Of a stretch of DNA of 64,000 nt, positions 38,397-41,047 are shown piece by piece (position 1 is the stretch's first letter; every line of letters begins with the position of its first letter). Made by a program: the position numbers and the translations under genes. Source of the DNA: Escherichia coli (GTDB lineage Bacteria > Pseudomonadota > Gammaproteobacteria > Enterobacterales > Enterobacteriaceae); NCBI RefSeq assembly GCF_044324785.1, contig NZ_CP172127.1. One strand, given 5' to 3'. The notes under the pieces were generated by a model. The model worked only from the letters and a program-made list of their open reading frames with translations. It was not told where the DNA came from and did no database searches.

Positions 38397-39635
38397 ATGG
38401 CTGACACTCGCCCTGAACGTCGCTTTACGCGCATTGATCGTCTCCCGCCCTACGTTTTTAATATTACCGCTGAACTGAAAATGGCTGCGCGTCGGCGCGG
38501 CGAAGATATTATCGATTTCAGTATGGGTAACCCGGACGGTGCGACTCCGCCGCACATCGTCGAAAAATTATGTACGGTGGCCCAGCGCCCGGACACGCAT
38601 GGTTACTCTACTTCACGCGGCATTCCGCGGTTACGTCGCGCCATTTCCCGCTGGTATCAGGATCGCTACGACGTTGAAATCGACCCGGAATCAGAAGCCA
38701 TCGTCACCATTGGTTCGAAAGAGGGCCTGGCGCATCTGATGCTGGCGACGCTGGATCATGGCGACACCGTACTGGTGCCTAATCCAAGCTACCCGATTCA
38801 TATTTACGGCGCGGTGATTGCCGGGGCGCAGGTACGCTCAGTGCCGCTGGTGGAAGGTGTCGATTTCTTCAACGAACTGGAACGCGCCATTCGTGAAAGT
38901 TATCCGAAACCGAAGATGATGATCCTCGGCTTCCCGTCGAATCCAACCGCGCAATGCGTGGAACTGGAATTCTTTGAGAAGGTTGTGGCGCTGGCGAAAC
39001 GCTACGATGTGCTGGTGGTCCATGACCTGGCCTATGCCGATATCGTCTACGATGGCTGGAAAGCGCCGTCAATCATGCAGGTGCCGGGTGCACGCGATGT
39101 GGCGGTCGAGTTCTTTACGCTGTCGAAAAGCTACAACATGGCGGGCTGGCGTATCGGCTTTATGGTTGGCAACAAAACGCTGGTTAGTGCGCTGGCACGT
39201 ATTAAAAGCTATCACGATTACGGCACCTTTACGCCGTTGCAGGTGGCGGCGATTGCGGCACTGGAGGGCGATCAACAGTGCGTGCGCGACATTGCCGAAC
39301 AGTACAAACGCCGCCGCGATGTGCTGGTGAAAGGGCTGCATGAAGCGGGCTGGATGGTCGAAATGCCGAAGGCTTCGATGTATGTCTGGGCGAAAATCCC
39401 GGAACCGTATGCTGCCATGGGCTCGCTGGAATTTGCCAAGAAGCTGCTGAACGAAGCGAAGGTCTGTGTCTCTCCGGGGATTGGCTTTGGCGACTACGGC
39501 GACACGCATGTTCGCTTTGCACTGATTGAAAACCGCGACCGTATTCGTCAGGCGATTCGTGGGATTAAAGCGATGTTCCGTGCCGATGGTTTACTACCCG
39601 CCAGCAGCAAACATATTCACGAAAATGCGGAATAA
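38397..39635 (+). CDS. alaC: glutamate-pyruvate aminotransferase (class I aminotransferase)
   Basis: 412 aa PLP aminotransferase ([12 protein letters not shown] lysine motif); synonym yfdZ. Confidence 0.92.
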
Positions 39636-39649
39636 ACACCGACCTCAAA

Positions 39650-39683
39650 AATGCAAACAGGAGCCTGATGGCTCCTGTTTTTC
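39650..39683. terminator. bidirectional rho-independent terminator after alaC
   Basis: aacaggagcc-tgat-ggctcctgtttttc. Confidence 0.8.
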
Positions 39684-39699: not shown

Positions 39700-39771
39700 T
39701 TAGATCATCAGGGCAAAAGTACCGGCCCAAACGATGACCATAAAAGAAATGCCCATAAAGAAATATTTCAC
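39700..39771 (-). CDS. ypdK: very small hydrophobic protein (23 aa)
   Basis: Minus-strand GTG-initiated frame giving MKYFFMGISFMVIVWAGTFALMI (GTG read as initiator Met), preceded by ggagag SD; recognised from memory as YpdK; too short for the ORF track. Confidence 0.45.
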   Translation of the reverse strand: MKYFFMGISFMVIVWAGTFALMI

Positions 39772-40126
39772 TTTACATCTCTCCGCGTAATTACTGTTAC
39801 GCCTGAATGACTTCATTACACCTGATACAGTGAGTTGACACCGGGCAAAACGACCTTAAAAGTCCTGTATTTTACCGTGGGCATCACCCCAGAATTCTGA
39901 GCTAAACTGCTCCAGACGGCGCTAATGTACGCCTAAAACTGAAACGAGACAAGAGGCATTTTCTTATTTACTTTTAGTAACTTACAGGTGTCTCATATCG
40001 GCGACAGTTTAATTTCTGGCGGTAATAATTAGAGATTCAGCGAAGGAAAAAACCTTAAGAAAAAAGCCATAAAAACCATGAGGTTATTATGGCTGATTTG
40101 AGGAGGGAAAGAGTAAGAGCAGTTTG

Positions 40127-41047
40127 TTAAATGTATAACGACGATTCACCCACCGGGCGCGTTTTAAAGCGACGGTGGATCCAGAGGTACTGCTCCGGCG
40201 CGCGCATGATCTCTTTCTCGATAATCTTGTTCATATAGGCAGCGGCTTGATTTTCATCTGCCGGGTAGCCTTCCATCTCTGGGGTGATGTACAAACGATA
40301 TCCGCTGTAATCCGCTTTTCTTACCATCGTTACGGTTAACATGGCTGCGCCAGAGAGACGTGAAAGGACATACGTACCATTGGTTGTGGCGACATTTTCC
40401 ACCGCAAAGAACGGCGCGAAGGAGCTGCCTTTACGACCATAATCCTGATCGGGAGCAAACCATACCGCTTCACCTTTCTTCAGTGCACCGACAATGCCGC
40501 GTAGATTATTTCTGCCGATCATCGCTTTGTTAGAGCGCATGCGCCCACGGGTCTGCACCCATTCCATCAGCTGATTATTATGTGGACGATAGGTAGCCAT
40601 CATTGGTTGACAAAGTCCCATCACGCGGCCGCCCAGTTCCAGCGACATAAAATGGACGCCGACAACCATTACGCCGCGATTTTGCATTTGTGCGCGTTTA
40701 AGGTTATCCAGTCCTTCAACATCAAACCATTTGCGTACGCGACTGTCGGGCCAGAACCACGCCATGCCGGTTTCTACCAGCGCCATGCCGAGTGAACGAA
40801 AGTTTTCGGCAATCATCTTCTCGCGTTCTTCCGCAGAATGCTGCGGGAAGCAAAGTTCCAGGTTTTTACGGGCGATAGATTCACGCCGTTTCAGGAATGG
40901 TCGCGCCATTGCGCCAATACGCGTGCCGAGAAAGCAGAGAACAGGATAAGGAAGCTGTACCCAAAGCCAGAGTACACCAAGCCCAAACCATGTGAGCCAG
41001 TAGCGAGGATGTAGAAACTCGCGGGAAAATTTGCATTGTGGAAACAT
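40127..41047 (-). CDS. lpxP: lipid A palmitoleoyltransferase (cold-induced late acyltransferase)
   Basis: 306 aa from internal ATG (MFPQCKFSREFLHPRYW...); HtrB/MsbB acyltransferase family. Confidence 0.88.
   Translation of the reverse strand: MFPQCKFSREFLHPRYWLTWFGLGVLWLWVQLPYPVLCFLGTRIGAMARPFLKRRESIARKNLELCFPQHSAEEREKMIAENFRSLGMALVETGMAWFWPDSRVRKWFDVEGLDNLKRAQMQNRGVMVVGVHFMSLELGGRVMGLCQPMMATYRPHNNQLMEWVQTRGRMRSNKAMIGRNNLRGIVGALKKGEAVWFAPDQDYGRKGSSFAPFFAVENVATTNGTYVLSRLSGAAMLTVTMVRKADYSGYRLYITPEMEGYPADENQAAAYMNKIIEKEIMRAPEQYLWIHRRFKTRPVGESSLYI

Follow-up and report, generated by a model that had tools for sequence, protein, structure and literature searches.

The reading frame at positions 39700-39771 (minus strand) of the 64,000-nucleotide (nt) stretch of Escherichia coli DNA analysed here (hereafter, the window) is ypdK, a small gene that is already known and annotated automatically, and is not new. 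That the frame is ypdK and a real coding gene we regard as practically certain, and we put the best explanation as a whole, in which ypdK is a real, already described and translated small gene, at a probability of about 85%.

Identity of the 23-codon frame

ypdK lies between alaC (38397-39635, plus strand) and lpxP (minus strand, stop at 40127). Read on the minus strand from 39771 to 39700, the frame runs from GTG AAA TAT TTC to ATG ATC TAA and translates as VKYFFMGISFMVIVWAGTFALMI up to the stop; the coding sequence, defined by sequence, RefSeq, profile (HMM) match, conservation and dN/dS, consists of a GTG start, 23 codons and a TAA stop, and encodes MKYFFMGISFMVIVWAGTFALMI. A Shine-Dalgarno (SD) motif, GGAGAG (39779-39784, minus strand), stands 7 nt (ATGTAAA) before the GTG, with its GGAG core 9 nt from the GTG. 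An earlier note on this DNA had described a GTG-initiated 23-codon minus-strand frame preceded by ggagag, and both are present as it described them.

The same note had named the product YpdK, and three lines of evidence agree on this name. RefSeq calls the same 72-nt coding sequence 'membrane protein YpdK' (WP_010723117.1), which in K-12 MG1655 is b4680 (2496921-2496992). The coding sequences of the window and of K-12 are identical, and a few positions of the leader and of the terminator flank differ between them. The NCBIfam equivalog model NF033437 'YpdK' matches the peptide over positions 1-23 of 23 with 57.5 bits (curated cutoff 30; E = 9.4e-16). The genomic place is also the same as that of K-12 b4680, downstream of lpxP and convergent with alaC. 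ypdK is listed among the 18 small open reading frames (ORFs) of Hemm et al. in a 2010 paper (PMC3009722).

A query of 801 nt around ypdK hit 5422 of the 5426 complete E. coli genomes, with at least 80% of its length covered in 5420, and alaC, 'ypdK: membrane protein YpdK' and lpxP are annotated under the match in all of the E. coli matches listed. The note's description of the gene as unannotatable by length proves wrong in practice, because the NCBI pipeline annotates ypdK in about 5420 of the 5426 complete genomes.

Purifying selection on the reading frame

The frame was compared across other Enterobacterales in 80 alaC-anchored loci, one genome per species. Because AlaC and not YpdK served as the probe, the choice of loci is biased neither for nor against the small frame. 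tblastn found ypdK, convergent with alaC, in 75 of the 80 loci, among them those of Escherichia, Salmonella, Citrobacter, Enterobacter, Kluyvera, Kosakonia, Phytobacter, Cedecea, Buttiauxella and others, and also of Pantoea, Erwinia, Mixta and Serratia. With the window included (n = 76), the product has 23 residues in 56 sequences and 24 in 20.

Variation across 69 distinct ypdK nucleotide sequences follows the codons, with a mean entropy of 0.58, 0.19 and 1.13 at the first, second and third positions, respectively. Residues Y3, M6, G7, S9, G17, T18 and F19 are invariant, and the third positions of their codons vary at Y3, G7, S9, G17, T18 and F19, M6 having a single codon. The exact E. coli YpdK is encoded by nine nucleotide sequences, and all nine sites at which these vary are third positions. 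Within E. coli, identity of at least 99% is seen for the 72-nt gene in 4771 of 5423 records, and for the 801 nt around it in only 265 of 5423. The pooled pN/pS of the frame is 0.28 and its median pairwise dN/dS is 0.17, whereas the ratio exceeds 1 in four of five control frames. These patterns show that purifying selection maintains the ypdK frame in Enterobacteriaceae, Erwiniaceae and Serratia. The earlier note had held that its reading would fail if the frame were not conserved and synonymous and nonsynonymous changes were equally frequent; the comparison across the alaC-anchored loci gave the opposite on both points.

We give next to no weight to the possibility that the stretch owes its conservation to a non-coding role, for example as terminator or 3′ untranslated region of alaC or as a small RNA, with the 23-codon frame incidental. 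Its position would suit such a reading, as the stretch adjoins a terminator and belongs to a short transcript (about 268 nt), and the antisense in-phase control frame has a lowish pN/pS as well, 0.30-0.42. That antisense frame, however, is interrupted by stop codons in 5 of the 69 sequences, and a low ratio is expected for it as an echo of the wobble positions that it shares with ypdK. Non-coding conservation is also at odds with the three-base periodicity of the variation, with invariant amino acids whose third positions are free, with the ratios of 0.17-0.28 given above, and with the conservation of length, GTG and SD motif in 75 species.

One of the 80 loci is too short to judge. Among the 79 informative loci ypdK is decayed or absent in four, and the gene is therefore dispensable in some lineages. 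In Erwinia endophytica (L068:5285-5320), the 3′ third of ypdK alone remains (...WVGVFYLML, then the stop), an apparent remnant. No ypdK was found within 4 kb of alaC in Symbiopectobacterium (L078), in Lonsdalea (L081) or in a record labelled Pseudomonas resinovorans. In that last record (L080, DSM 21078), the best aligned segment of AlaC is 91% identical to enterobacterial AlaC, which may reflect contamination, mislabelling or horizontal transfer.

Two rare variants were seen within E. coli (L083:201-272 and L084:201-272). In O157:H7 strain SS17, a 1-nt deletion in a C-run shifts the frame and gives a 20-residue product that is annotated as ypdK all the same; the frameshift may be an assembly error. 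Strain 19SZHZ803Rt carries G17S, at a glycine that is invariant elsewhere.

An invariant GTG start codon

The GTG (39769-39771, minus strand) is the start codon in 76 of 76 ypdK sequences from three families, and the next codon is AAA or AGA. In 75 of the 76 the GGAG core precedes the GTG by 6-10 nt, and it is invariant in a plain MAFFT alignment (A1). Such an invariant, weak start suggests selection on the expression level or on local RNA pairing.

The ORF listing gives the same frame as a 38-residue ORF that begins at an in-frame ATG at 39816 (MKSFRRNSNYAERCKVKYFF...), and in the window the frame is indeed open from that ATG. Nonetheless, we consider it extremely improbable that the real product is this 38-residue protein. 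Upstream of the GTG, the frame is closed by a stop after a single open codon in 30 of the 76 species, and any in-frame ATG is present in only 23 of them. The spacing of GGAG suits the GTG and not the ATG, the extension occupies a stretch that carries a covarying RNA hairpin, and the NCBIfam model has 23 positions. We take the GTG as the start because the extension is not conserved, the GGAG is correctly spaced and the stretch carries that hairpin.

A stand-alone transcription unit

ypdK is preceded by a sigma-70-like promoter (39924-39952, minus strand), with a -35 element TTGTCT (39952-39947), a 17-nt spacer and a -10 element TACATT (39929-39924), which places the transcription start at about 39917-39919. 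The promoter block GTACATTAGCGCC is kept in 67 of 76 species regardless of the upstream gene, and in nearly all of these 67 it is found some 120-165 nt ahead of the GTG. Across species the -10 element reads TACATT in 53 cases, TAAATT in 8 and TAGATT in 5, with a -35 element TTGTnn at 17-nt spacing. The E. coli promoter agrees with the consensus at only 8 of 12 positions, which is under the threshold of the promoter scan, and the scan therefore missed it.

From the conserved promoter, the transcript was predicted to start at about 2496772-2496776 of K-12 (about 2494794-2494798 in the older numbering) before any transcript data were seen. A tiling-array transcript at 2494795-2494997 (U00096.2) covers ypdK (2494943-2495014) and starts 148 nt upstream of the GTG (PMC3009722, supplementary file 3). 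In window coordinates this transcript spans about 39919-39717, and its start agrees with the predicted promoter. The same tiling array reports a log2 change of +1.06 for the ypdK transcript after UV, an induction of about twofold (PMC3009722); no LexA box that would explain it was seen by eye. The tables of transcription start sites from two Cappable-seq studies have no entry near the ypdK locus.

At its other end, ypdK shares with the convergent alaC a bidirectional intrinsic terminator hairpin (39655-39680, both strands) with an 11-bp G+C-rich stem between an A-run and a T-run. Its fold energy is -23.6 kcal/mol (z = -3.5) for the minus strand and -22.1 kcal/mol (z = -4.2) for the plus strand. 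A Term-seq 'primary' 3′ end is listed for ypdK at K-12 position 2497040 in M63 glucose (PMC7815308; Adams et al. 2021, supplementary file 1, M63 sheet); it lies 48 nt past the ypdK stop and just after the shared hairpin, at about 39652 of the window (minus strand). The placement of the frame just past a bidirectional alaC terminator, as the earlier note had it, is borne out by the stem, strong on both strands, and by this 3′ end. The end is listed in only one of three growth conditions (PMC7815308), which suggests that expression of ypdK is low or conditional. No Term-seq 3′ end appears in the M63 sheet between the lpxP terminator (2496632) and 2497040, nor inside the leader (PMC7815308).

A start at about 39919 and a 3′ end at about 39652 give a transcript of about 268 nt. 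ypdK is a stand-alone transcription unit of this length, its start site resting on one tiling-array boundary. The surroundings of the gene lead to the same conclusion, because the upstream gene varies and what is conserved is the convergent arrangement with alaC. Only 12 loci have lpxP upstream, with varied genes on either strand elsewhere, and the gap from ypdK to the upstream gene is mostly at least 190 nt.

Several features of the neighbourhood were recorded alongside. lpxP has its own terminator at about 40040-40095 (minus strand; GCCATAA...TTATGGC, then TTTTTT), and a Term-seq 3′ end for lpxP is listed at K-12 position 2496632 in an entry marked as antisense to the EcoCyc small-RNA candidate tpke70 (PMC7815308). 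This candidate is on the opposite strand over the 3′ part of lpxP, and not over ypdK. In five Citrobacter loci (L005-L009), ypdK and lpxP are separated by a plus-strand ORF of 218 residues whose N terminus resembles a signal peptide, so that lpxP is about 1 kb away. In 14 Erwiniaceae (among loci L058-L082), a gene for an HlyD-like membrane-fusion protein lies on the same strand about 100-210 nt upstream of ypdK; this family-specific neighbour might hint at an efflux-related partner.

Conserved helices in the 5′ leader

The leader of ypdK, about 148 nt long (39772-39919, minus strand) as delimited by the tiling-array start and the conserved promoter, is predicted to hold two conserved helices with compensatory changes across Enterobacteriaceae. 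We regard this as a modest side finding that is possibly new.

The first helix is a hairpin abutting the SD motif, GCGTAA-cagtaa-TTACGC (39785-39802, minus strand), which is indicated by covariation and occurs in the minimum free energy (MFE) and centroid folds of the E. coli leader. Of 51 distinct Enterobacteriaceae leaders, 50 have a stem of 4-7 bp, whereas no leader of Erwiniaceae or Serratia has one. Stems of at least 5 bp form in 88% of native leaders, compared with 17% of shuffles, 51% of cross-species arm swaps and 4-23% of shifted anchors. On the plain MAFFT alignment A1, 86% of cells are paired and five of the six pairs carry double-sided changes. Compensatory cells number 39, whereas shuffling yields 14.1 +/- 2.7 (0 of 500 shuffles); slid registers are all much worse.

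The second is a long-range helix obtained with RNAalifold on 50 whole leaders. Its 5′ strand (GGGGUGAUGC; GAGGUGAUGC) lies at 39881-39890 and its 3′ strand (the GGUGUCAACUC region; GCAUCAGCUC) at 39832-39841, both on the minus strand. Here 94% of cells are paired and four of eight pairs show double-sided changes, whereas slid registers pair in at most 55% of cells. Taken together, the two helices have 68 compensatory cells, whereas shuffling yields 25.8 +/- 3.6 (0 of 500). The core of the long-range helix, like the SD hairpin, is contained in the MFE and centroid folds of E. coli; the single-sequence fold of the E. coli leader as such has a z of -1.58, which is not exceptional.

A possible 5′-proximal stem-loop (UCUGGAGC...GCUCAGA, with one bulge; 39896-39916, minus strand) is weakly supported. 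Its arms differ between genera, yet around half of the species keep them complementary; stems of 6 bp or more form in 41% of leaders against 19% in shuffles (maximum 30%), and the energy signal is weak (mean z = -0.37, p = 0.004). An outer helix enclosing the SD motif (TTCATT/GATGAA) is 62% paired with almost no compensatory change, and is not claimed.

Other candidate elements in the leader were discarded. Matches to sigma-54 and sigma-E promoters, seen by eye, are inconsistent between species. A TATAAT-like block about 45 nt upstream had been considered as a promoter, with the GAGGTGATG block as SD motif and ATG; the consensus fold places GAGGUGAUGC and GCAUCAGCUC, which adjoins the TATAAT-like motif, in one helix. 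In the window, the ATG in GAGGTGATG opens a leader ORF of 22-23 codons (MMPTVKYRTFKVVLPGVNSLYQV; 39816-39884/39887, minus strand) after a GGGG/GAGG motif. Across species, the SD-like motif and ATG of this block are found in only 25 of 67 leaders, and the ORFs that start there range from 4 to 62 codons. With a pN/pS of 0.73 on a protein-guided alignment and a flat entropy of 1.32/1.12/1.43 over the three codon positions, the ORF gives no sign of coding selection. A search for attenuation by a leader peptide accordingly found no conserved, coding-selected ORF in the leader.

The conserved blocks of the ypdK-lpxP spacer are thus the promoter and the two strands of one RNA helix. The earlier note had supposed that similar small proteins may be hidden nearby. 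For this spacer the idea finds no support, because the spacer consists of the ypdK promoter and a folded leader, and the upstream ORF in it lacks coding selection.

Two further observations bear on the extent of the leader. In Erwiniaceae and Serratia, it differs from the leader of Enterobacteriaceae. The E. coli species representative SCPM-O-B-8794 (L003:5372-5488, compared with window 39769-39918) is without 33 nt of the mid-leader, between the strands of the long-range helix, and this part seems dispensable. A search of the leader against Rfam 15 on both strands gave a best score of 23.5 bits, against a gathering threshold of 65.6, to an unrelated plastid family.

Judged from the sequence comparisons, we would give even odds that the leader is regulatory. 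That it constitutes an undescribed conserved structured RNA element of Enterobacteriaceae, which might control YpdK translation in response to a signal or act in trans as a dual-function RNA, is possible but distinctly less likely. The second of these roles, in which the leader of the ~268-nt transcript would base-pair in trans, is compatible with ypdK being a translated gene, and we hold it to be improbable. The transcript is short and monocistronic with its own promoter and intrinsic terminator, it carries covarying helices, and it has highly conserved segments outside the predicted helices, all of which a dual-function RNA might be expected to have. Regulation in cis, however, explains the conservation of the leader equally well, and the leaders of Erwiniaceae and Serratia differ. 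We know of no base-pairing target, Hfq binding or trans activity for ypdK RNA.

A single hydrophobic helix

By its sequence, YpdK is a protein of 23 residues that is predicted to consist almost wholly of one hydrophobic helix. Residues 4-23 have a GRAVY of 2.15, in line with the single hydrophobic helix of the earlier note, and the sole charged residue in 40 distinct homologs is a K or R at position 2. The sequence therefore has the single hydrophobic segment of about 20 residues and the flanking positive charge of a single-pass membrane protein. Hemm et al. reportedly detected YpdK as a tagged protein in 2008. The invariant residues form two motifs, M6-G7-x-S9 and W15-x-G17-T18-F19. Clustering of the conserved residues on one helical face is not significant (P = 0.30), and a simple one-face packing interface is unsupported because they do not lie on one face.

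The literature searched reports no function for YpdK. In the mechanism that we propose, YpdK would span the inner membrane once, with the N terminus on the cytoplasmic side according to the positive-inside rule. Packed against a larger membrane protein, or as an oligomer, it would serve as a small partner with an accessory or regulatory role. The motifs M6-G7-x-S9 and W15-x-G17-T18-F19 may be the contact sites, and the structured leader and the weak GTG start would probably set or regulate a low level of translation. That YpdK works by binding a larger membrane protein or by self-association is a tentative proposal, whose chance we place a little below one half. Characterised small membrane proteins of E. 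coli work with partners, as in the pairs AcrZ-AcrB, MgrB-PhoQ, CydX-CydAB, MgtS-MgtA and KdpF-KdpABC.

A hydrophobic peptide of this size could also be a toxin in the manner of the type I toxins Ibs, Ldr, ShoB and TisB, its translation restrained by the leader and the weak start. Size and hydrophobicity are similar, and the long structured leader, the hairpin at the SD motif and the invariant GTG would fit; as in these toxins, a short hydrophobic peptide is combined with a structured leader near the ribosome-binding site. Type I toxins, however, typically have a patchy, multi-copy distribution. ypdK is instead single-copy, strictly syntenic (75 of 80 loci), strongly conserved and under purifying selection across three families, with a median of one place per E. 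coli genome and no paralog within the 64-kb window. A search for a cognate antisense or overlapping small RNA found none over ypdK, tpke70 being situated over the 3′ part of lpxP, and found no Rfam small RNA on either strand. Because of the single-copy synteny and the purifying selection, we consider a toxin-like role very unlikely.

Relation to known systems and significance

The nearest counterpart of the gene in the window is YpdK of K-12 itself, with the same coding sequence and the same neighbours. Like YpdK, the small proteins AcrZ, MgrB, CydX, MgtS, KdpF and PmrR have fewer than 50 residues and one hydrophobic helix and are conserved across enterobacteria. They differ in that their partners are known and several are encoded in the operon of the partner, whereas ypdK stands alone with a variable upstream neighbour. 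There is also no sequence relationship between YpdK and these proteins; a Pfam search with the YpdK peptide matched no family.

At the level of the transcript, the layout of ypdK is that of SgrS/SgrT and AzuCR/AzuC, which are RNAs of a few hundred nt with their own promoter and terminator, a protein of fewer than 50 residues and a structured non-coding part (PMC12612679; 10.1101/2021.04.27.441574). The resemblance of ypdK RNA to these systems is in layout only.

ypdK exemplifies, in textbook fashion, the small proteins that length cut-offs overlook. Finding it again adds nothing new in itself, because it has been known for years and its annotation is now automatic. What our analysis adds is, first, a quantified account of purifying selection across three enterobacterial families, together with the invariance of the GTG start, and second, a model of the transcript (promoter, 148-nt leader and shared terminator) in agreement with the tiling-array and Term-seq data. 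Finally, the evidence for a conserved folded leader, which the covariation suggests for Enterobacteriaceae, may offer a handle on when YpdK is made.
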